Shown piece after piece: positions 5,597 through 34,750 of a DNA stretch of 38,494 nucleotides (within the stretch, counting starts at the first letter, position 1; the number at the start of each line of letters is the position of its first letter). Source of the DNA: Cystobasidiomycetes sp. EMM_F5 (Eukaryota); contig JBPGPT010000012.1 of the NCBI GenBank assembly GCA_051047955.1, positions 496,001 through 534,494 on the forward strand, in the 5' to 3' direction. Made by a program: the position numbers and the translations under genes. The notes under the pieces were generated by a model. The model worked only from the letters and a program-made list of their open reading frames with translations. It was not told the origin of the DNA and ran no database searches.

Positions 5597-7731
5597 CTAT
5601 GCATCGATTTGTGAGCCAGAGCCGCCATCACTTGGCTCTGTCATTGGTGACTGTATAACATTCGGGTGCTTGTGTTGACCATTGATGTGGCCTTGCTTGT
5701 GTAGTGCTGATACTTTCGGCGACGGGACGATGATAGAAGTTACCTCAGCATCCTCTTCTTCCTCGTTCGTGACCGATCGCTCCCGGCTAGACTCGTCCGT
5801 ATCGCTCATGGGTGGACTTAGCGAAGAGTCACTGTCATGTTCGCCATGTGCAGCTATTCCGTCAAGGTCAGTGTCCGAATCAAAGTCTAGCTCCTCTACG
5901 TCCGTAAGGTCCGAATCGTCGCCTGCCGATGGCTTGCTGGCTCTCGCATTCCGATGCCGCGTCTGTCTCTGGGTGCTTCTGGACTGCCGCTTTTGCACCG
6001 CTTTGCTGTTCCGTACCGCAGTATCTGCTGACTTTCCTGACGCAGACGTTGAAGCATGTTTATGGGCCTGGCGCAATGCGCTCTTGGTCTTCGGTGTAGT
6101 CTTTGCTGTGGCTTTCGATGACGACGCGACCTGGCTGCGAGTGCGAGGTGCTTCTGTCTCTTCCTCCTGCTCGAGTTTACGCCTCTTTGCCTCTTTCTCT
6201 CTTTCCATCAAGATCTGGCCTGACCTGGTCTTTCGGTCTCTTTTGGCTTGTCGCCGCTGCTCCTCCTGTTCTACCGTCAACAAATGGTAAAAATCGCCTC
6301 GAAAATCCCTGTGCGCCCATCAGCCGATGTTAAACTCAGCTAACGTGATGTGATCTATACGTACTTCCGGCACGAATAGCATCGGCATTCCCGGTTTTTC
6401 CTGCCAAAGTATTCTGAACCATAGTACGAGAAGATTTCCTGCGTCAAAAATTAGCTTGACAGGTATCGGGCCATTGACGCGATCCACTGACTTCGCCTGC
6501 CGATATCGGACGGACTACCTTGAAACACAGACCTTTGCCAGTGCGAATAAGTTCGACGTTAGATTTACAGTCGTGCTAGAAAACCTTGTATCAGTAGTAA
6601 CGACGAAGAATTGTCTGTGTCGACCCACATTGACAAAGCGGGAAGGTCCCATGAGGATCTGGAAGCAGTTTTTAGTTGGGTTGTAAAGAACGCTGAACTA
6701 GAACGTTGCTATGTGATCAGCTTCTACGCAGTAGATGATGCGGTAAGCGCTCACGTCAGCTTTTAGCTGGGAAGTGTCCATTCGCATTTCATCGTCTTGA
6801 GCATCTGTCAGATCTCCCGCACTGCCAAACAACCGAATAATCTCGTGTACTTGATAATCTCGAGTAGCTTTGAAACCTAGGTCCAATGGCTTCCTTGGAG
6901 GAGCCTGCCAGTCTGATTTTTCCACTGTGCTGGTATCGGGCTTATCATTCTCTTCTGGCTGTGGCGTATTATCCCCAGAGTCTATTTGCAGCATGTCCTG
7001 ACTAGTGACTTCGCCGCCGAGATCAGCTGCCTCCGGCAAAGCCGTCATTGTAGCTGGAACCATCACCCCTCCCCGTGATAGCGTTGAGGTGCCAATTTCA
7101 TCGTCATCACTGTCCTCTGGTGGAGGTCTACGCTTTTGTGTGCGCTGTTTATAGCGATGCGTTTCAAATATGCGGAATCCAGGGTCTGGAAGGCATAGTT
7201 CCAAATAACGGTTCAAATGGCTAGAAAAGAACAAGATCAGCGGACAATTAGGGATCCGGCAGCGATGCTCACTTTTCCGCATGTAGCATCGATGCCTGCG
7301 TCGTTTTGGCGCGCATCAATTGGCCAATGGGGCCCATCTTTCGCAGCCTGATTGATGCGTCCTTGAGTGAGATGTTGCCCGACTTGAGCTGCATGGATGT
7401 CATGCGTAAGCGAATGTGTCTGTTCAAGTTTCCGGCATGGTGTCGCACTTCTACCACAACGTCCAATATCGGTAAACATTTGTCCATGTGCGGTACTTTG
7501 AAATCCTGTCTTTGCATCTTACGAGACATTTCTGGACCTTGCTTGCTGCGGTACCAATGATTCGGTCCATACTTGTCAAAGTATAGAGGCAGATCAATAA
7601 AGAGATAGCTTTAGGGGGCGGGCATTAATGGACGCGTCAAGAACATCGCGACAATCAAAAGTGGGGGGAACCTACCTGAACAGATCGTCATCTCTCTTGC
7701 ACGCCTCCAACAGCGTGATTCTGCGTCCCAT
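5597..7731 (-). CDS. SET9: Histone H4K20 methyltransferase (Set9/SUV420H family) with low-complexity acidic/basic C-terminal tail
   Basis: HLNRYLELCLPDPGFRIFETHRY, spliced LMGPSRFVN|HDCKSN, EIFSYYGSEYFG and post-SET ECRCYSC. Confidence 0.88.
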
Positions 7732-8087: not shown

Positions 8088-10522
8088 TCACGCTGCAGAG
8101 GGTTGGCCATTCGCAGGTTTGAATAGTTCCGCATCCATCGAGGTAATCACGCCTAAGCCCTTTGTTTTGCCTTCGCGGAACAGGATCCGCGAGCCAGGAC
8201 GGCAATATTCCGGCGATTTGATAAATTCCATTACCACTGCGTACAAGCTTGTCAGCAACGTCCTCCATGCAGTCGCTCTTTGTCTCACCTTGGCATCGAT
8301 CTCCCGTGCGGACAAAGGGTCTGTCGATATCAACGATCTTGACGGTCTGGCGAATAGATCCGATGTGCGCCATAGCTTGATAACCCCGCGCTATGGTCGA
8401 GTTGTGATACAGAATGAGGACGGACGCAGTGAAGCGCTGTACGGCTTTGGGTGTTGCGTCATGACTGAGCAACACCATGCCTTTCCGGACTTGATTCCGT
8501 CGTATCCGCTTCAACGCCAGGGCAACGGATTGACCGGCTTCTGCACCCGCAACGCGGACTCGTTTCCGTTCTATTGATCGAATGGATGTCGGAATGAACG
8601 CACCGAGCGAGTCAGGCTGATGTATTCCATAAGTCAGCATTGCACACAGGTAAAGTCGGAACAAATTACGCACGCCTATTAATACCGGATCTCCCGCTTT
8701 CACTGTCCCAGATAGCAAGACACCAGACACCACGCAGCCAACAAAAGGCACCGAAAACACGTCGGAGATGGACAGCTCAAGCGGAGCCGACGCGTCGAAT
8801 TTCCCTTGCGGGGCTGGATTTAGTGCATTCAAGAAGCATTCTTGTAGTGGACGCAAGTCAGCACCCGATCGCACATCGCTACGTTGCGACATACTCAGAG
8901 GCTCAAGCCCTTCGCCATTGACATTAGAGACAAGGAATATTGGAGCGGCCCTGCAAACCGCTTGTCAGAGCAATACGCAGAAAGAAGGCAATAAAGAACT
9001 GACTTCTGCGACACAAAGCCTTTTGCCAATGAGCATGCCATTCCGCGATTCTTGACGAAAACGGGAGACTTTCTGCAGCCAGGTGACCTGAGGATTTTGG
9101 CCAATTGTTTTAAGGTGGAATCCAGTACGTTGGCTGGCGTGCTGTCGATTTTCGTCACAACGCAGACTATCGGTACGTTCAGAGCCAGAGAAACTGATAG
9201 ATGCTCTTTGCTCATTCCTACGATCCCGGCATTCGCTCCAACAATCAGTAAAACAAAGTCGGGAGAACACGATGATAATGCTCCAATAGTAGTCTTGAAG
9301 TACTTCTCGTGGCCTGCCAAGTCGATGAATCCGACTACCTTGGCAGCTTCCTTGCATATCTCGTCCCACGACAAATCTCTCCGCCGAGCTGCAGCATTGA
9401 CTGTCGACGGAACGGACGTGCTGACAGTCGTCGCTTTGCCGTCTTTGATAGCTGGAGTAGGACCGCTTGTTCCGGGAACGACATCCGACATCACTTCGCG
9501 TCCGCTCGGATCGAAGCCCAATATCTCCATTCCGACTGATGATGTTCTCCCGGTCTCAATCTCGTGCTTGTGCCGGAAGAGGGCAACTCGGGCGCGACCA
9601 CGGCCGTCGTCCAGTCTGCCTTTGGTCATAACGCCAAGCAGCGTTGACTTTCCTGCGTCGACGTTGCCCACGACTGCGACACGGAGTTCGAGCAACTCCT
9701 CTGCAGTGTGCGGCTTGGCTCGAACGAGTATGTGTAACGACTCTTTGGCATCCCACTTGCGGAGAGTATCGTCATCGTTCGCTGAAGTCGCAGGAGCGTA
9801 TTTCGCCATTGATTCCTCCTCGGCAATGTTATGCGTATCGAACGGGTTCCACAAGATGGAGGCGTACAGCGATACCTCGGAGCAGGCTGCCTTTATGCTC
9901 TGAAACGCCTGGTCGACATCGGCTTGAGCAAGTAGAGGCAGAGACGTGTGGGCCGTAGGAGAAGCCGCATCACGCGTATCGAGTAGAGATGCCAGAGAGC
10001 GCTCGTTTAGATTATGGGACGACAAACATAGTAGCAGTTCGCCACGAGCATGCTCTATCTGGCCGTGCAGTAAAGAGGCCAGGGATGAAGTTGATGATTC
10101 ATTTGGGTGTAATAAGCGCTCCTGGTATGTATAAACCAGATTTCGTAATGGAAATTGTGGGAAAACGTGGGCCGGATGGGTCAACATAATTGTGGCAACG
10201 TCAGCGACAAGAGCATCGATAGGCTTGTCTGCAGGCGTCGTCTCACGAGAATAGTTCTGCCATCGTCACTGTCTTCTATCGGCGGACCCTGCTTGGGCAA
10301 TGCGTGCTCATTCTCCTTTGTTGCCAACGAGGGCACCGGTATCGCGGGCTTGACTTGGTGCCGCTGGACCTTCTTTATCGGCGACTGCGGGGCTTGCTGC
10401 TGCTGCTGGGCGGCTTTCGACTGCTTCGAGTACTGCTCAATCTCAGTCTGGAAGCTGGCAAACGATGCCATGGTTGCGCTTTCGTTGCGGAGAGGAAATG
10501 CGGGTATTGAGCTGGCTGTCAT
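8088..10522 (-). CDS. GTPBP1: GTP-binding protein 1 (GTPBP1/2 family translational GTPase)
   Basis: G1 [31 protein letters not shown]3 [11 protein letters not shown]4 VTKID, C-terminal [10 protein letters not shown]. Start (ATG 10522 or 10471) is uncertain. Confidence 0.9.
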
Positions 10523-10704: not shown

Positions 10705-11829
<1,125 letters not shown>

Positions 11830-12092
11830 GGTCTGGCTGTACAGCTTGCATGCATTGGGCAAGTTGACGCACCGCTCACCTGAACGGCTCGAGTGCAGCA
11901 GCCTTTGCCGGATGTCGATCAGAATCACTTCCAGCTCTCACAAAGCTCCATGTCCATCTCATGTGGACAGCTGACGTATCGCTGACATTCCGCCTTTTCA
12001 ATGCTTATCTTGGTCACGCTTCCTTAAAGTTCTTTTCAGACACGTCTTTACATCACAAAACGCAGTAATCTCCCCACGAGGCCGTGGCTACC

Positions 12093-12583
12093 TCACTTCC
12101 GTTTCATCTGCTTCACGGGCCGGTGATTGGCAGGACTTCTCTGTCCAGTCGAACTTGCTGAAGAATTGCGTCGCTGTCTTTTTCTGTGCTGCGGATCAGT
12201 GAGATACCGGGCGCGGTTGGGCCTCTACTTACTTAGATGCATTAATGTCCTGAGTCCATTCCATGGCATCTGGGATTGGCGAGCTGCCATCAAAAATATG
12301 TCAGTGACATGATCACCGCGGAACACGAGCGCAGTCCTAACGATTGTGCCAGTCTCCAGGGGAGACCTGGTTCTCGGATGCACTGTATCCGGACGCCAGC
12401 GCGAGGCCATGCGTTGCTGTATTGGGCCAGATAATCCAAAACCCTCGCATCTAGCTGGCTTTCGTCAAGATCAGGAGGCTGCCATAAACCAATAGCGCTA
12501 GTCTGCTGAAAGATGCAATGGCCCTTCCAAGTGCGGCCTCGGATGCCATAGATGGTGAATGTCTTGTGCTCGGCGACGTTCAT
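12093..12583 (-). CDS. Hypothetical protein, tandem-family copy A (127 aa; exons 12583-12342, 12283-12233, 12183-12093)
   Basis: Core LDARVLDYLAQYSNAWPRAGVRI, exon 2 SPIPDAMEW, basic tail KKRQRR...KQMKRK. Two phase-2 GT-AG introns fall at the same positions as in copies B-D. Confidence 0.65.
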
Positions 12584-13273
12584 TGTTTATCCGGGGCAAG
12601 ACTGGCTTCTGCAAAAGATGGTCGCTGAAGACAATCCGGCATATCTAGGATACCCACATTCACTGATCTACGCTGTCGAAGCTGTGCATGCGCAGTACGT
12701 TTACACTGTCTCAGCCGCTAAAGCGTACTACAACACTGCGCAAAGGCATAGCCATTACTGCTAGCAGTGTGCAACACACCAGCAGTGATGGCAAGATGCA
12801 CAGCGATGCAAGTACCCCACATGCATCACGGACAGTCAGAGTCTGTTCGGGTATCTTTTGAGCAACAGCACGGGCATGTCAACCTCCGTCTGATGGCCTG
12901 ATTGCGAGCGCTTGACCTACCTTCAATTGCTGTGTTAGAGCGCGTGCCTCGGGACGCAATGGCTCCTCTTGGTAGCTCGTCATTTTAGGCCCTTTCCGCT
13001 TTGTGCAAATGAAACAATGGCGAACTTCGGATTATGTGCAACTTAACTGACGCAGGGCATGGGGCTTCTCTGCTGTGCGAGAACTCCCGTCGGCAAGTTA
13101 TTAGACAAGCCTGTTTGTAATGCACGTATATTTAATTGAAAGCGATATTCCGATACGAACAACCTAAAAGCAAAAGCTTCCCATATAACTGTTCGGCAGC
13201 ATACAGCCTCGGGGACGCGCGTCCATGGCTGCTACAATTAAAATCGCAGCGTGTCCAGGTAAGATAGCGGTCA

Positions 13274-13831
13274 TCATCGAGAAGCTCGCCCACGTTTATT
13301 GGAAAGCCATCCAGATTTCGGTGCTTCCGGCCTGCGAACGACATTTCCGCGCAGATGAATCGATTTTGGCGAGAGGAGATTCAGCACGGAGGTCACGCTG
13401 AGCATGCAGTGGAACATTCGCTAACATGATTGGCTCAGAGCGAGTCTGTCGATATACGACCGAGGGCATCCACTGCATACGATTCTCATCAGGTATATGG
13501 AGAGGAGGTCTGCATCGTACTACGCGTATTAGTCCCGCCGATGGTATAATGCTGAATAGTATTACCTCTCGGACGTGCTCGCGAAACCCCAAATACCATT
13601 GTCCTTCTTCACAAGCCGCAATGTGACGCCCTCATTTGGCCATCGTTCGCCGTACTGGAGGAGATGTACGCGCACAGGCAGTTCGAGCTGGTGCGCGGAA
13701 ACGGTGTGCGTCCAAGTTGGAGTATGATGGTAGAATACCCTCTCATAATTGATCACAGCTGACTGAAAGAAGGTAACGGTAGCAGGCACAGACAACGGTC
13801 CTGCTGGACGCTTCCCGATAATTGTAGCCAT
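13274..13831 (-). CDS. Hypothetical protein, tandem-family copy B (135 aa; exons 13831-13566, 13509-13426, 13331-13274)
   Basis: Core LELPVRVHLLQYGERWPNEGVTL, exon 2 PPLHIPDENRMQWMPSVVYRQT, tail KRGRASR; two phase-2 introns. Confidence 0.72.
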
Positions 13832-14121
13832 AGCGATGGTCTATGCGTAAGTGTCGGGTACCGGTATGTCAGACTTCCGAATATAGACATGACCGAGACC
13901 CATTTTCACTGAGTTGAGTGTTTGCAGAGCCCGGCGATGTTGACCGCTGAACAGCAGGCCGGGCACCGCCCATACAAGACAGACATTTCTCGACCGCTGC
14001 AGCAAAGTCGTCATCTGGTTTATTTTAGCGGATGCATGACTGACAACGGTCATAATTTCAATTGTGCGTCATGCCTGCCGGATGCCCGCCTCTCGTACAC
14101 ACATTTTACACGACACAGAGG

Positions 14122-14684
14122 CTACGAAACGGAACGTCGACGTGCCACAACGCTGGTCGAGCGCGGTGAACCGGTTGGACTGGAGTAACAGAGGTGACGA
14201 CGGAGCCACCGTCCCGATGTATCAGTACCGTAGCTTCATACATTCGACCAAGTGCACTCACGTGGATGATCGCCTCCAGGTCTGTGGGTATACCAGAGAA
14301 GGGATCCATCGCATCTGTTGTCGGTGCGGCTTGTCTGTTGGTGGAGAGCTGCACAGTTGGGAAAGGTGTTCAGCCGACTTTCCACGACGATTCGCGGCAT
14401 TCATACCTGAGAGGGTGAAAACCGTACAATAATCCCCCGGTCTTCTGTTCATTAAGTATGTAGTGGAAGCGGACACCTTCATCTGGCCACTGTTCACCCC
14501 AACTTCGCAGGTACTCAAGAACGGGTTTCTGAAACCGTTCTGCGCGAATCTTCGCTTGCCAGTCGCGTGAGGTGTAAAAGATCTCGCCCTCATCAGCCAG
14601 GACAGCTCTTTGGTAAATTGTTAGTTCAGGAAGGTGCTCCACGGGTCGTCCTCGAGGACGCGCGCGCTCGTAAGTGGGGGCCAT
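14122..14684 (-). CDS. Hypothetical protein, tandem-family copy C (140 aa; exons 14684-14407, 14348-14262, 14179-14122)
   Basis: EGEIFYTSRDW, PVLEYLRSWGEQWPDEGVRF, exon 2 KPHRQQMRWIPSLVYPQTW, tail TPTGSPR...RRRSVS; donors GTATGA and GTGAGT. Confidence 0.78.
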
Positions 14685-15133
14685 ACCGCAAATATACTTG
14701 CCAGCAATTTCGTTCGGACGTATGCCGAGATGGGAAACAGATGACTTCCGCTGGGTCCCAGAGAATGTTGCAAGCTTGAATGGGCGGTACCGGCCTGTGC
14801 ATCCCGTATTGCGGTGTGCACCGCTCCGGTGTGCGTACCGGATGGGAAGAGGTATCTTTGGGATGCGGCGATGCCTTGTTAGCCATGTCAAACGAAAGCA
14901 ACTCAAGCAGCATGCGAAAGAATCAGTCGTTTTCATCAACGCGCTGTTGCACGTGCATATGGAAGTGTATCAGTCACAGAGTCAAAAAGGACAACAATCA
15001 TTTGATGCAAAAATGGTTAGTGATAAAGGGCGTGGAGGGAGGACGATCAAGCCGTGACGGAGGCGCATGTTGCAGCGCTAACGAAGTAGCTGCTCAGGGA
15101 ACATACTGCAATATCAAGGTGAGACATTGTGTG

Positions 15134-15698
15134 CTAGCCGGACCGCCTACGTGGTGGTCCCCGATACGTATCCGCTCGCGGCGTGCCAACAGGACTAGAA
15201 AACCTCGCCAAATTGCGTTAATGCATCAGTCACATTACTTATCGACGGATGCAAGGCATCGAGCTCACGTCACACGACATCCCCAGGTCGCCTGATACAC
15301 CTGGGAGGGCATCCAGTCCATGAGATCTGGATGTGGCTTGTATGGAGTGGGAGGGCTATTCGCCGCCAACATTCAGCCTGGTAGTCCATCAGAGACTCCG
15401 GCACGCAAATCACCGACCAATTTTTGGCGAAAGCGTACAGCCGCTGGCCGCCTATACCTTGCTTGATGACATACTGGAATTTTAGGCCCCCGTTTGGCCA
15501 CTGCCCTCCATGACCTCTTAGATGATCAAGAACGGGGAGATCGAATTCTTGCTCGCATATATATGTATTCCAATCTCTTGAAGTGTAGAAAACTTGGCCT
15601 TCGTAGGGCAGGACGGCAGAATAGTAAACGATCATCGTCTGCGGTGGCGTTCGCGGTGGAGACGATGAACGACCTCGCTTCTTGATGGTCGGAGCCAT
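15134..15698 (-). CDS. Hypothetical protein, tandem-family copy D (142 aa; exons 15698-15418, 15355-15269, 15194-15134)
   Basis: EGQVFYTSRDW, PVLDHLRGHGGQWPNGGLKF, exon 2 KPHPDLMDWMPSQVYQATW, tail TPVGTPR...RRRSG. Exon 2 is 87 nt, as in copy C. Confidence 0.78.
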
Positions 15699-16379
15699 AG
15701 CTGTTGACAAGAGTCGGTCTCGATACACCTGCAGATATGAGTATAAGTACTGCAGGATCCAGGTAACAAGCCTGCTTTCGTATGGCATTTTGGACAAATT
15801 CGTTGCAATCTACAGTAACCTTAAGCTTTGCCATTGTTTTTCTCATGCACCGCTAGACAGTACGTTGTGCGAGGTGAACGCACTTTGCGCATTTACGGGA
15901 AAGTGATGCACCGAGTGTGTGAAGTGCGACAGCTCGATCTGCATGCATATATGCAGACGTGACGTACACGAAATGGAGCGAGTCAGTTGGACTCCTGGAT
16001 CAGCGGAATCTGACGGGGTCAGCCAGGTTACGGTAGATTGAGAGCGTTGTTCTGATATATCTTTCGACATTGCTGGGATGTCAAGAGCCAAAACGCGCAA
16101 AGTTTGGACGCGCATATGGCCCCGATCGCACTCGTTGTTGTTTTGATGTTTGTCGTCTACAAAGCTGCACAACACCAACCAAGGGTGCTGCTGTATCATC
16201 TGAGGCTGATTGATGCACGACTACTGCAACGCTGATATTCCAATGTACCATCTCCGCTGAATGGGTACGACGAGACTCCTGGCAAAACAAACGTGATCGG
16301 CCATGAACATCGGCCATTTAGGACTCGCTTAGCGGCCCCTCTACGAGCGATACGTGCAGCCCTCAGCGTGCTTACCAGA

Positions 16380-19220
16380 ATGCCAGGCTCAAGCAAGGGC
16401 AATGGTTTACTCGTCCCGCCAACCGATAGCGACGACGACGATGACTTTGATGAAGATATCGTGATGAGGACGTCCAGCAGTAAGGAAGTTGGCGTAGAAA
16501 AGGCATCGAATGCACGTCCATCGAGCAAGCAACTTCATTCACTGGCATTGGCCCGGTTGCAGAGCGCACATCAAGCCAGTAGATCGAAAAGACGACCTTC
16601 AAATACCCCAGAACGAGGCAACATTGCATCTCACACGCACAATTCGCACTCGATCGACGGTACATCCTCTTCGCTGATTCGAGAGGGCCGGAATAGCTCT
16701 CCTGAAAGGCACCACCATGCAAGCAAGAGGCAAAAGATAGATACTACGGCAGACAAGACAAAGCAAAATAATACACTTGTGTACGAAGTGTTGGACGACG
16801 ACAGTGACGAAGATGTGCAGCCCTCTATTTTACAAAGCAGCCATGAAGACGACGAAGACAAGTTGCCCCCGCCAATAGAGCAAACATGGAGACCACGAGC
16901 TAGGCCGACGTTTGCAGGCAACAAGCGGTCGTCTCCTGCAGTAGAACTGCACAACTCAGTAGGAGACAGCAAGTCGAGGCTGTATACAGATTGGCGCGAG
17001 CCGGAAGATGGCTCAAGAGCCACAGACTCTTCGCACATGGAAGTGGATTTTGCAAGTGCAACGGGATCCACATCCGGAATAACGGATGCGCGACCGCCGC
17101 GCTCAAACAGCCCTCTGGACCTGGGCTTTGACTTCCTGTACAAGTCACAAAATACCTCAACGAAACCGGACGAAGACGCTCAAGCCGAAGCATCGTCTTC
17201 AAATCGCCACACAGGGCCGTCCAGTTCCACCAGTGGGCAGGTTCAATCGCATGATATGCCCTCTCCCAATCTGGGTTCCATACCAATCGCGTCACCAACT
17301 TCCACCAGCGACTCCGCAACACTTCAATCCGATCAAGCATCAGCATCATCCCTAGCTCCGTTAATGCCAGCAGGAATGTTGCTCCCCACTCCTCCTTCTC
17401 CTCCACCAGCAGCACGAGCTGTCCAGTACCCTTCACCATCGCAATCAGCATATGCCGCAAGTTCACGTTCTTCAGCAGTTGCTTCAGGTAGCAGTACAGC
17501 CATGCCCATCGAAGCGGATTCGGCGCCTTTTCACCGCGAGCCGGCGACGACTTCGAGATTTTTCGTTCGAGGATCGCCCGTTGCTGCAGCGGCAGCAGCG
17601 GCAGAAGCTAGAAACAGGGCGCAGAAAGCGTCCACTGTGCCGTTTAGGAAGGATGAAAGTGCATTCGTAATGAGTTCAGACTTTGCTGTGACTTCTTCGA
17701 AACATCATCCTCCGGCAGAAGCTGGTCCGTCGCGAGGTAGTCATACAAGTAGACCTAGCGGTAGTAAGTTTAAATTTACTGGCGACAATGGTGCCATTGT
17801 AGCACCTCCTGCAAGACCGGCTGCAACTACAAGCACAAGCAAGCAGGAAAGACAGCTGCAACGTGCGGAAACTGTGGACCGAAACGTTGCTGCACCTGCC
17901 AATCTCCCCAAGACCTTACAATACGCCACTGCTCCCGCAGCTGTGCGTCATGAATCACCTCAAACGTACAGGGGCGAGCGACAGCCTGTCAAAGGCTCGC
18001 GACAACCTTCTCCAGTACCGAGTGAGACACTACGAGCTGAAGATGGCGATGAAGCACTACTTCAGTGTTCGATTTGCGGTGGACTTGTGAGAGCACTACA
18101 CACACACTGATCGTTTGTGGTGATGAGACTAACGATGCTCCTGCCCAGTATCCCGAAAGCATGCTCGACGAGCATGAGCAAAGCGAACTCGCAAGCATGG
18201 CAGGTCATGGTCTAACGCCTGTCGCAACGGCAGCCCCCGCTCCCACAACAAGGCCCTTGGCTGCGATTCGCACATCCTCCCCGAAGAGGGCTAATCAGTC
18301 TGTGCCCTTCCAACCGACAAACCCTCCCGGGCTACTACGTGGCTTACGCAAAGAGCCTTCTCTTGCCGAAGTACTCTTTGGAGAAAGTGACAGCACGACT
18401 GCTGCCAAAGGCCGTGCTGTGAAACCGTTGACAGGCAAACAAAAAGGCAAGGCCCGCATGCGCGATGACGAAGATCAGGATATGACAGTCCACGATGAAG
18501 ACGGGGACTGGGAAACTATTCCGGACGGCTGGCTTGAGGACTTGGTGCCTATCCAAGACAGCAACGTATCAATCGCTGCCGCTAGTAGGCCGCAGCTCGC
18601 ACCTCCGGGCCCTCGCCAGCCATCCAAGCCCATCAAGAAATTTGCTGCCGTCATTGATATTCCTGATGATGATATGGATCATGTTGAAGGCACTGTGATT
18701 GCGCATCAAAAGAGGACTAGCAAAACTCCCCTTCGCCAGCAGCAGTCTAGGCAGATTACTCAGGAGGAACAAGCGGAAGAGTTTGGCATCATGAATGTCG
18801 GCAAATCTCCCGCCAAGGGATTGATCCTCCTTTCCGATTTGAGCGTAGATGACCAGGACAAATGTAAGGCAAGAAGACGTAGGCCATCCCAAATCGCTGA
18901 CTGTTCTGCCCCTCACCGTAGATTGGCAACTGATTGGCTCAACCCTCGAGACTTCAGGCCTTCAGACGAGTACGCAGCAGCGCAAAACTCGCAATGTAGC
19001 ATCTGTACAGAAACCAAGGAACGATGTACACGCGCCACCCTCTGGAATGCGAGCAGAATGGGCAGGTCTGGTAAATCAGCCAGCACAGCGGGCCAAGACA
19101 CAGCCGCAGAAGAAAACGTGGTCCCAACAAGGCAGAGGAAAGGCTGGCGGCAGTGGCAGTGGCATTCGTGCAATGAAGGCAGGTCCAGCACGAAAGGCGC
19201 CAGCGTCTAGACGCAATTGA
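16380..19220 (+). CDS. Large, mostly disordered S/P/D-rich hypothetical protein with a UBZ-like zinc-finger motif; 3 exons
   Basis: Long open frames joined by GT-AG introns near 18087-18149 and 18864-18920. Spliced CSICGGL|YPESMLDEHEQSE; NLS-like KRQK; basic C-terminus. Confidence 0.7.
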
Positions 19221-32312: not shown

Positions 32313-32629
32313 GGCGTGGTTTGCGTGAGCGATAAAGGCGGGAGTCTCAGCTTTGGAATTGAGGAGGTGCAGACGGCCAAGAAATGCGCGACCGAGACGA
32401 GCTTTTATGCGGTATTTGCAAGTATGACACAGCGATTCGGCCTTGTCAGTCTTTGCAATCAACAGTTGCTGACAGGCTGACTAAGACATGACCCGAACCC
32501 CGAGCTGCCTCTTTACGCGACGAAGAGTGGACGCGACTAATTTTGCAGGAGTGTGTCAGGAGTTGATCGGAGAATGTCCCAACTGGCTCACTGCATGTAC
32601 GCTTACTATCAGTGTAGTACGTCCACATC

Positions 32630-34750
32630 ATGCCTCCTGTCTACACGCCCCGCCGAGCTGGACTCGCGCTCCTTCTGCTGCTAATCCTCTTTGTATCGAA
32701 CCGCCAAACAACGCCCAACCACCAAGCAGTTTTGCCAGACGACGATGGTCACAGCCAACAGTCATTCAAGCAGTCCGTGCCACCTATCGACAGACACTCG
32801 CTGCTCGATAAATTCAGGAGGATAGAGGTATTAGCAGGGTATGCACGATATGATCAAGACATCGCGGAACAGCGGGCAGCGGATCGCGTTCCAGCGCGGG
32901 CATCAAAGCAGCGCGAGGAATTTGTGCAGTCACACCTTCTCGATTACGAAGTCTGCCCTTATACACAGTCGACAAGCGGATTCGGGTCTTGCAAGTTTCT
33001 GTTTCCAGCGTGGATTGGCGAGCAAGAGACAAAGGCACAACTACACCTGTATCAGCTGGGATTACTCGCCATCGCACTCAATAGGGCTCTGGTGCTACCC
33101 AACATGGTCAAGGGCAGAATGATGTCGTGCGCGAAGAAGCCATTCGACTACTACTACGAGCCGGACTCTTTGACGAGACTACTGGGGAACGCGTCTACGA
33201 TATCGTTCGAGCGCTTCAGTGAATGGTCAAACAAGAGACTAGATGAGCCTACGGCGCGGATTGTCAGCATAGCCAAAGAGACGGAAAATTACCCATCCGG
33301 TGCCACAATTCAACATGGTCAGGGTGGGGTGGACAATGCAGCAATGGATCTCGGTCTAGATACTCAAGCTCTACACTTACGAATACCAAATCTACCCGAC
33401 CGGAAATTATGTCTTGACCCGCCGAGAGTAAGCCTGGATTTCGTCAAGTATGCCCCTTTGGCCATGTATCCTCCTCTGGACTGGCATAGAAGTGACGACA
33501 GCTCAATTGAGTTTGGCTCATCACTCGTTGAGACACTGGCGGCTCCTGATATCAAGCAAAGGCCGCGGTCGCGGCCGCAGCGGATGGCACAGGGAAAGCG
33601 GGCGGGGCAGAACCAGTTGGCTTTCCCTGCTGATGTTGATGACAGTAGTCCGGATGTACTTGTCATTAGCTACGAGTTGCGGTATCCCATATTTTCGGAA
33701 GATAGCTTCAACGCATTAATGGAACAACGGCAACCGTCATTCGACACGCCAGCCGTACAATCGTTCTCATACCTCGAGTATGCATCAGCCTGGACAGATA
33801 TCGGCATGCGCATCGTCAAGGCTTTGGAACCCTTCATCGCCATTCACTGGCGGCAGGAGACTATGCCATTACAGTCCATCATGCCCTGTGCGGAGTCTCT
33901 CATTGCCAAATTACTGGAGGTGACCGACGATCCGAGCAATGCGGACATTAAGACTATCTATCTGCTGACCGACTACCCCGTCGAGGCATTGACGAGTCAA
34001 CAGGGGGACGACGAGGCCGAGGGAGCCGATTTGCAGTCATCTACAGGGTCATCAAGCGCGCATTCCGGCACTTTCACAAAGTTGCTTGCCCCCCAGCATC
34101 ACGATGGGATGCGGACCTTCCTGCGCGTATTCAGAGAAAAGATAACGAAAGAAAGAGGGATCCGCTTGACAATGTTTGCAGAGGAGCGGCAGCGTCTCTT
34201 ACATGCCGAACAGCGTCACCGAGACGAGCAAGAAGCCGCCGCACTTCTGGCTTCTGAAGCAGTGGTCGCAGCTCATTGGGGCGGGCCGCACAGACCTGGT
34301 CAGCGCATAAGCTCTCCCCGCAAATATACCCTGTCACCGCTGGTATACGATGAAGAAATGGTTGAGAATCTAGCAAGACTGGATGCAGGGCTGATTGGGA
34401 TAATTGACAAGACTATAGCGACACATGCACAGTACTTTATTGCCGGTACGCCGCTCAAGGGCGTCAATACTGCTGAAGTCGCATGTGCGAAAGCGAGTAG
34501 CTTCACGAACCAGATCATTGACGCCCGCAGCGCTGCAGTCAAAGACAACGCAGAAGGCGACGATGAAGGTGCCGATGTAGACCCAGTTGCAATTAGCGGA
34601 AAATCAGAAGGTGGATTGTATCGATTGAGGAGTAAGTCTTTCTAAAGATACCTTCAGCTGTGCTAGGCTGATGGATGTACGATCGCAGACGTAGTAGAAT
34701 ACTGGTCAAGGTCATTGGCCCCAAGGAGAATGCACTTCGAGAGATTGTAG
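32630..34750 (+). CDS. Type II membrane O-fucosyltransferase-like (GT-B, POFUT-related) glycosyltransferase
   Basis: N-terminal TM anchor, WIGEQETKAQLHLYQLGLLAIALNRALVLP, FIAIHWRQE, IYLLTDYP, GIIDKTIA..A..FIAG, SSFT..I. Short last exon after a GTAAGT intron. Confidence 0.72.

Follow-up and report, generated by a model that had tools for sequence, protein, structure and literature searches.

The minus strand of a 38,494-nucleotide (nt) stretch of DNA from Cystobasidiomycetes sp. EMM_F5 (contig JBPGPT010000012.1, positions 496,001 to 534,494; hereafter the window), which lies at a contig end, has a GC content of about 51% and contains short GT-AG introns, carries between positions 12093 and 15698 a tandem array of four small, intron-split genes, named here D, C, B and A in their order along that strand. 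We put the probability that these are real, conserved genes at about 0.9. Their reality is supported by the open frames, by introns in phase 2 in all eight cases, by a proportion of synonymous differences (pS) above that of nonsynonymous ones (pN), and by the recovery of A, the most diverged member, with a profile built from the other three.

The three-exon models were enumerated by a script from each ATG in the window, and then compared with the choice made in a first-pass annotation of the same DNA, which had proposed four spliced genes encoding 127, 135, 140 and 142 amino acids (aa). The rebuilt models, which are predictions, have the same lengths (D 142 aa, C 140 aa, B 135 aa, A 127 aa), and all four coding sequences are open, each with a single terminal stop. 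The phase-2 introns and exon sizes proposed in that annotation (exon 2 of 87 nt in C and D, exon 3 of 58 nt in B and C) are likewise recovered: the eight introns are all GT..YAG, in phase 2 and 49-94 nt long, and each contains a branch-like CTRAY or CTGAA. The distances from ATG to ATG along the co-oriented genes are 1014, 853 and 1248 nt. The predicted features, all on the minus strand, are as follows.

Gene D exon 1, 15418..15698, minus strand: starts with the ATG at 15698; a basic N-tail rich in Ser and Pro precedes the core, which includes the helix and the WPxxG motif.
Gene D intron 1, 15356-15417, minus strand: 62 nt, phase 2.
Gene D exon 2, 15269..15355, minus strand: 87 nt, MxWxPSxVY motif.
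Gene D intron 2, 15195-15268, minus strand: 74 nt, phase 2.
Gene D exon 3, 15134..15194, minus strand: basic tail and stop.
Gene C exon 1, 14407..14684, minus strand: ATG at 14684; AlphaFold core with a predicted local distance difference test (pLDDT) of 78-90.
Gene C intron 1, 14349-14406, minus strand: 58 nt.
Gene C exon 2, 14262..14348, minus strand: 87 nt.
Gene C intron 2, 14180-14261, minus strand: 82 nt.
Gene C exon 3, 14122..14179, minus strand: 58 nt, basic tail.
Gene B exon 1, 13566..13831, minus strand: ATG at 13831; matched in the genome search from C (E 1.6e-6) and D (2.5e-8).
Gene B intron 1, 13510-13565, minus strand: 56 nt.
Gene B exon 2, 13426..13509, minus strand: 84 nt.
Gene B intron 2, 13332-13425, minus strand: 94 nt.
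Gene B exon 3, 13274..13331, minus strand: 58 nt, basic tail; less certain, given a weak donor and an open frame on retention.
Gene A exon 1, 12342..12583, minus strand: ATG at 12583; most diverged member.
Gene A intron 1, 12284-12341, minus strand: 58 nt.
Gene A exon 2, 12233..12283, minus strand: 51 nt, P..MxW only, weak alone.
Gene A intron 2, 12184-12232, minus strand: 49 nt.
Gene A exon 3, 12093..12183, minus strand: very basic tail, 11 Lys/Arg in 30 aa.

Some of these junctions admit more than one choice. In D (15438) and C (14427) an in-frame GTACG donor lies 21 nt upstream of the modelled intron-1 donor, at the same codon in both, and B has an alternative in-frame donor 9 nt upstream of the modelled one; these alternatives alter the length of the protein and keep its frame. 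The downstream donors are preferred because the codons otherwise skipped encode a pair of aromatic residues that all four proteins conserve. The GTACG donor common to C and D may reflect conserved alternative splicing, which would remove the last predicted strand. Both donors of B (GTAATA and GTTAGC) are off consensus, and the gene remains open, with 159 aa, when intron 2 is retained. In A, a second candidate for the last acceptor lies 5 nt upstream (exon start 12188) and leads to a non-basic tail, and the tails of B and A are uncertain. The layout of intron 2 is common to B, C and D, with a branch-like site at nt 36-41 followed by 33-51 nt devoid of YAG up to the modelled acceptor, which supports the acceptors chosen. 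This distance from branch site to acceptor compares with about 21-25 nt in intron 1, and in D, C and B the long spacing is kept despite no detectable similarity in intron sequence.

The relationship between the four proteins was assessed with Smith-Waterman scores, each compared with 1000 shuffles. The pairs D-C (score 274, 42% identity), C-B (158, 30%), D-B (155, 31%), D-A (75, 20%) and B-A (74, 21%) score above all shuffles, and the remaining pair, C-A (53, 24%), is reached by 2 of 1000. These scores fit the branching order ((D,C),B),A. When A was left out, a profile of exon 1 from D, C and B ranked exon 1 of A directly after its three source sequences among 24,229 six-frame segments (E=2.6e-5), the best match after it standing at E=4.6, and hhalign aligned A to the other three with a probability of 94%. 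Exon 2 of A scores weakly alone in the same kind of search (E=2.5), so that its assignment rests on its position and on the M-x-W pair. Profile searches found no fifth copy in the window; an 18-codon segment at 7522-7575 (minus strand), which matches the exon-2 profile at E=0.009 (0.1 in the leave-one-out version), is probably due to chance.

Codon comparison of the six pairs gives pS of 0.69-0.77 and pN of 0.40-0.58, with third codon positions 0.28-0.37 identical versus 0.45-0.68 for second positions. Nonsynonymous divergence (dN) ranges over the pairs from 0.56 to 1.10 and synonymous divergence (dS) from 1.9 to saturated, the values for D-C being 0.56 and 1.9, respectively; the resulting dN/dS of about 0.25-0.5 is a rough ratio, given the saturation of dS. 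Between D and C, 33 of the 52 identical residues other than Met and Trp show a synonymous change. The coding DNA of the pairs among D, C and B is more similar than in all 200 shuffles, whereas introns and upstream regions show no similarity above shuffles in any of 18 comparisons (score reached by 16-198 of 200 shuffles); an apparent likeness between the upstream regions of C and D was rejected, as 52 of 200 shuffles reach its score. Four intact frames at near-saturated synonymous sites indicate purifying selection at the protein level after an old duplication, and the same saturation means that positive selection cannot be claimed.

These results bear on several proposals of the first-pass annotation. 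Its tandem paralog family is borne out by the co-oriented arrangement and by five of six pairs above all 1000 shuffles, and the decay of similarity along the array that it attributed to stepwise duplication agrees with the order of the scores. The selection on protein that it proposed emerges from the dN/dS comparison it had suggested, with dN well below dS and four of four frames intact. Its view that conservation lies in the protein rather than in the DNA needs a small correction, since the coding DNA of D, C and B retains detectable similarity. The label of a fast-evolving family finds no support in the data, which point to purifying selection and, with synonymous sites saturated, to an old duplication.

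Homology searches recovered little beyond the array itself. A HMMER search of 1.84 billion representative sequences with the four-member exon-1 profile gave three matches, the open reading frames (ORFs) of C and D themselves and P0007, a repetitive, low-complexity sequence of 682 aa that was rejected as a relative as it matches only 21 positions. Profile word searches returned a single match each, to the array's own ORFs, both among 122 candidates of near length and among 7042 longer ones. Scans of metagenome (0 of 196 stretches) and viral sequences (0 of 78) gave no match, neither Pfam nor NCBIfam contains a matching family (exon 1 has no Pfam match at E<=1), and Rfam has no match within 11800-16400. 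PHROGs offers a single family at E=0.066 for one of the four members, the only match among PDB sequences is macroH2A (E 0.7), and the best ESM Atlas value, 0.88, comes with no usable named match and is a lead only. In the genome itself (18.3 Mb, 253 contigs), protein searches with C, B and D retrieve B-D only and A retrieves itself only, which means that a member diverged as far as A might be overlooked. Searches with motif patterns, covering variants other than the one carried by D, yielded 18 matches against 15 in the control, and 9 against 2, with none outside the array better than E 0.6.

A lineage-specific family, as proposed in the first-pass annotation, would agree with the near-empty outcome of the profile search that it had recommended, but the proposal is only as strong as the sampling of its kin. 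The synteny comparison, also suggested there, covered metagenome loci encoding relatives of the neighbouring EF-Tu-family GTPase, the best 80 out of 363; none of them contains the array, and the Rab exon, UBZ-like gene and ABC transporter piece are missing from them as well. The GTPase relatives in these 80 loci are just 50-57% identical, which shows that close kin are unsampled and confounds the blank for homologues. A further confounding factor is annotation, which missed B and A here and would likewise miss intron-split orthologues. The absence of a known domain, claimed from the outset, agrees with the Pfam, NCBIfam and PHROGs results. No published account of this sequence family was found in the literature at the level of titles and abstract openings.

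In public collections, C is present as an unspliced call only, and the protein collection searched contains neither B nor A as an unspliced ORF. The unspliced ORF of D clusters at 90% identity with a hypothetical protein, P0008, which its source assigns to Cystobasidiomycetes. In this model of D an additional exon further upstream is linked to the gene over a gap of 22 nt (15750-15729), and intron 1 is left unspliced (window 15729-15834 plus 15270-15698, minus strand). We judge it to be probably a gene-prediction error, because it misses the exon-2 frame common to B, C and D.

The predicted proteins are basic, with basic tails (isoelectric point 9.7-10.3) and with N-termini that are basic or Pro-rich. 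A crude hydropathy test (best 19-residue window 0.0-1.06) found no signal peptide or membrane helix in A-D, and a cluster of small secreted effectors was rejected on the absence of an N-terminal signal peptide in that test. In the numbering of C, W42, W66 and W107 are invariant and positions 24, 36, 37, 58 and 87 are Y, F or W. There is a single conserved acidic column and no conserved set of Cys or His, the Cys count being 0-3. AlphaFold run on the four-row exon-1 alignment gave a mean pLDDT of 73.8, with the blocks at 21-80 reaching 78-90, so exon 1 is predicted to encode a small, compact, beta-rich domain. The elements follow the order b1-b2-b3-helix-b4-b5, as in the OB fold, and a single-sequence model of D has a similar order at low confidence (pLDDT 48). 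Among the Foldseek matches listed for the PDB, 36 of 37 are proteins that we take to be OB-fold proteins (RuvA, ExoVII, HIN-200, Lys/Asp/Asn-tRNA synthetases, RPA70N, OBodies), and structural re-alignment of residues 14-92 places the C-domains of eIF5A/EF-P and ribosomal eS4 on top. No significant fold match to the exon-1 model was found in PDB, PDB-wide or viral structure libraries. Prediction of a complex between the exon-1 core and the exon-2 peptide, run without alignments, gave an uninformative score of 0.02, and the idea that one half of the protein repeats the other was rejected (probability 0.25%).

The explanation that we tentatively place first is that of an OB-like module binding nucleic acid or chromatin. 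The family probably arose by old, stepwise local tandem duplication, with A splitting off first, then B and then C and D, and purifying selection on one compact domain has kept four working genes since then. The proteins would stay inside the cell, and the single conserved acidic column and the missing Cys/His set suggest that they are non-enzymatic. Their OB-like sheet may stack its conserved aromatics on single-stranded nucleic acid or on a chromatin partner, the Arg/Lys tails would add nuclear import and charge or affinity, and each paralog would have its own partner or stage of expression. This model draws on the resemblance to OB small beta-barrels (eIF5A/EF-P C-domain, RPA/SSB domains, RuvA domain I), which are alike in having three strands, a helix and two strands, and which dominate the weak structural matches across the whole exon-1 model. 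The main rival, possible but somewhat more doubtful, also takes the genes as real, but assigns them a fold that is new or has escaped recognition and to which exon 2 adds the final part. The proteins would be small protein-binding adaptors whose paralogs have come to bind different partners, with a role for instance in self/non-self recognition, in meiotic conflict or in a programme tied to one stage. Against it, the codon data show no positive selection, the genome searches found no partner gene or second locus, and the predicted strand order is that of a very common fold. Rather speculative is the idea that the small domain has not been described before, being a new fold or else a profoundly altered OB barrel that takes its last element from exon 2. 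Its four specialised versions would have been retained for long enough to saturate synonymous sites and would have a nuclear role specific to the lineage, for instance in protecting single-stranded DNA or RNA, in restraining transposons or as participants in meiotic conflict, and orthologues would lie unannotated in other basidiomycete yeasts. The roles in conflict, non-self recognition or chromatin named in the first-pass annotation are guesses.

Its chromatin idea was tested as a chromodomain and failed at the sequence level. Degenerate chromodomain-like readers, in which residues 20-66 would form the three-strand-plus-helix chromo fold and bind a histone or other peptide, are accordingly unlikely: a profile of 13 chromodomain stretches (11 of 16 genome matches to PF00385 plus two from another search) aligned to the spliced array with a probability of 0.2-1%, equalled by 6-18 of 60 column shuffles, whereas the eEF3-type chromodomain gave 92% against the others and a negative control 0.5%. 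The array profile scores the 13 stretches at 6 bits or less, the best ones out of register, and the array is not among the matches of genome-wide PF00385 and PF01393 searches. A weak contrary signal is that the chromodomain profile scores C at 6 bits (single-comparison E=0.0006), out of register, with D unscored. The array also differs from the chromodomain, chromo shadow and chemokine folds in its two further strands and the exon-2 motif that follows. A ubiquitin-like domain (PF00240, profile from 18 of 26 matches) was rejected too, at a probability of 0.1%, equalled by 29-30 of 60 shuffles, with a control at 96%. Another explanation is that the array consists of diverged, amplified copies of a small OB subunit such as RPA3 or Ten1, one of them the genome's orthologue. 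The lack of any exon-1 Pfam match counts against it, as does the nature of such subunits, which as a rule occur in single copy and have no long basic tails. The size of 127-142 aa and the OB-like order would fit this explanation, as would the lack of matches to PF08661 and PF12658 in the genome, had these exon-by-exon searches not proved uninformative, with no match in any control genome. Fungal telomere proteins are reported to diverge strongly (PMC7952879), which also speaks for it; we nevertheless hold it to be improbable. The least likely explanation is that of pseudogenes, transposon remnants or chance ORFs, to which the weak donors of B and the poor support for exons 2-3 of A lend themselves. 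Against it stand the four frames intact at near-saturated synonymous sites, dN well below dS, and the loss of similarity in non-coding DNA where coding sequence has kept it. No inverted or direct terminal repeats were found at the array, and protein and motif searches of the genome turned up no more copies. The observed/expected CpG ratio of the array genes is 0.78-1.06, and their GC content at third positions (0.51-0.54) is near that of a neighbouring housekeeping exon (0.57).

The neighbours of the array are, on one side, a gene for a Ras-family GTPase (Pfam Ras, E=1e-12), labelled Rab4 in the first-pass annotation, and on the other a long, low-complexity gene at 16383-19200 (plus strand), divergent from D, which has a CxxC and then, past an apparent intron, a His, UBZ-like by eye; two of its exon pieces have no Pfam match, and the metagenome loci examined contain no match to it. 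The EF-Tu-family GTPase exon at 8895-10265 (minus strand; Pfam E=9e-20), presumably GTPBP1-like, points through its distant best relatives to a lineage isolated in collections. An intron-poor ORF of 675 codons at 32618-34645 (minus strand) has an N-terminal hydrophobic anchor and resembles an O-fucosyltransferase-like glycosyltransferase. Elsewhere in the genome there are about ten chromodomains of at least two sequence types, mostly near contig ends (L011, L012, L014, L016-L021, L023), which look retrotransposon-borne, and two further chromodomain genes (L013, L024), apparently of the eEF3 type.

Orphan families grown by tandem duplication are common in fungi, and in this respect the array is already familiar: it resembles such families in its clustered genes of one orientation, common intron phases, low identity between pairs, lack of database homologues, and genes that annotation has overlooked or spliced wrongly. 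Among fungi, small secreted effectors are the best-known examples, such as the Venturia effector family (PMC5412055), from which the array proteins differ in having no signal peptide, few Cys and basic tails. What is new here is a sequence family with no record in the searches run, made of basic, probably intracellular proteins instead of the usual secreted kind. It offers a clear example of real, selected genes that annotation overlooks or splices incorrectly, and its small, soluble, apparently well-folded domain, which has no match, would be a cheap structural target and may be a new nucleic-acid-binding module.
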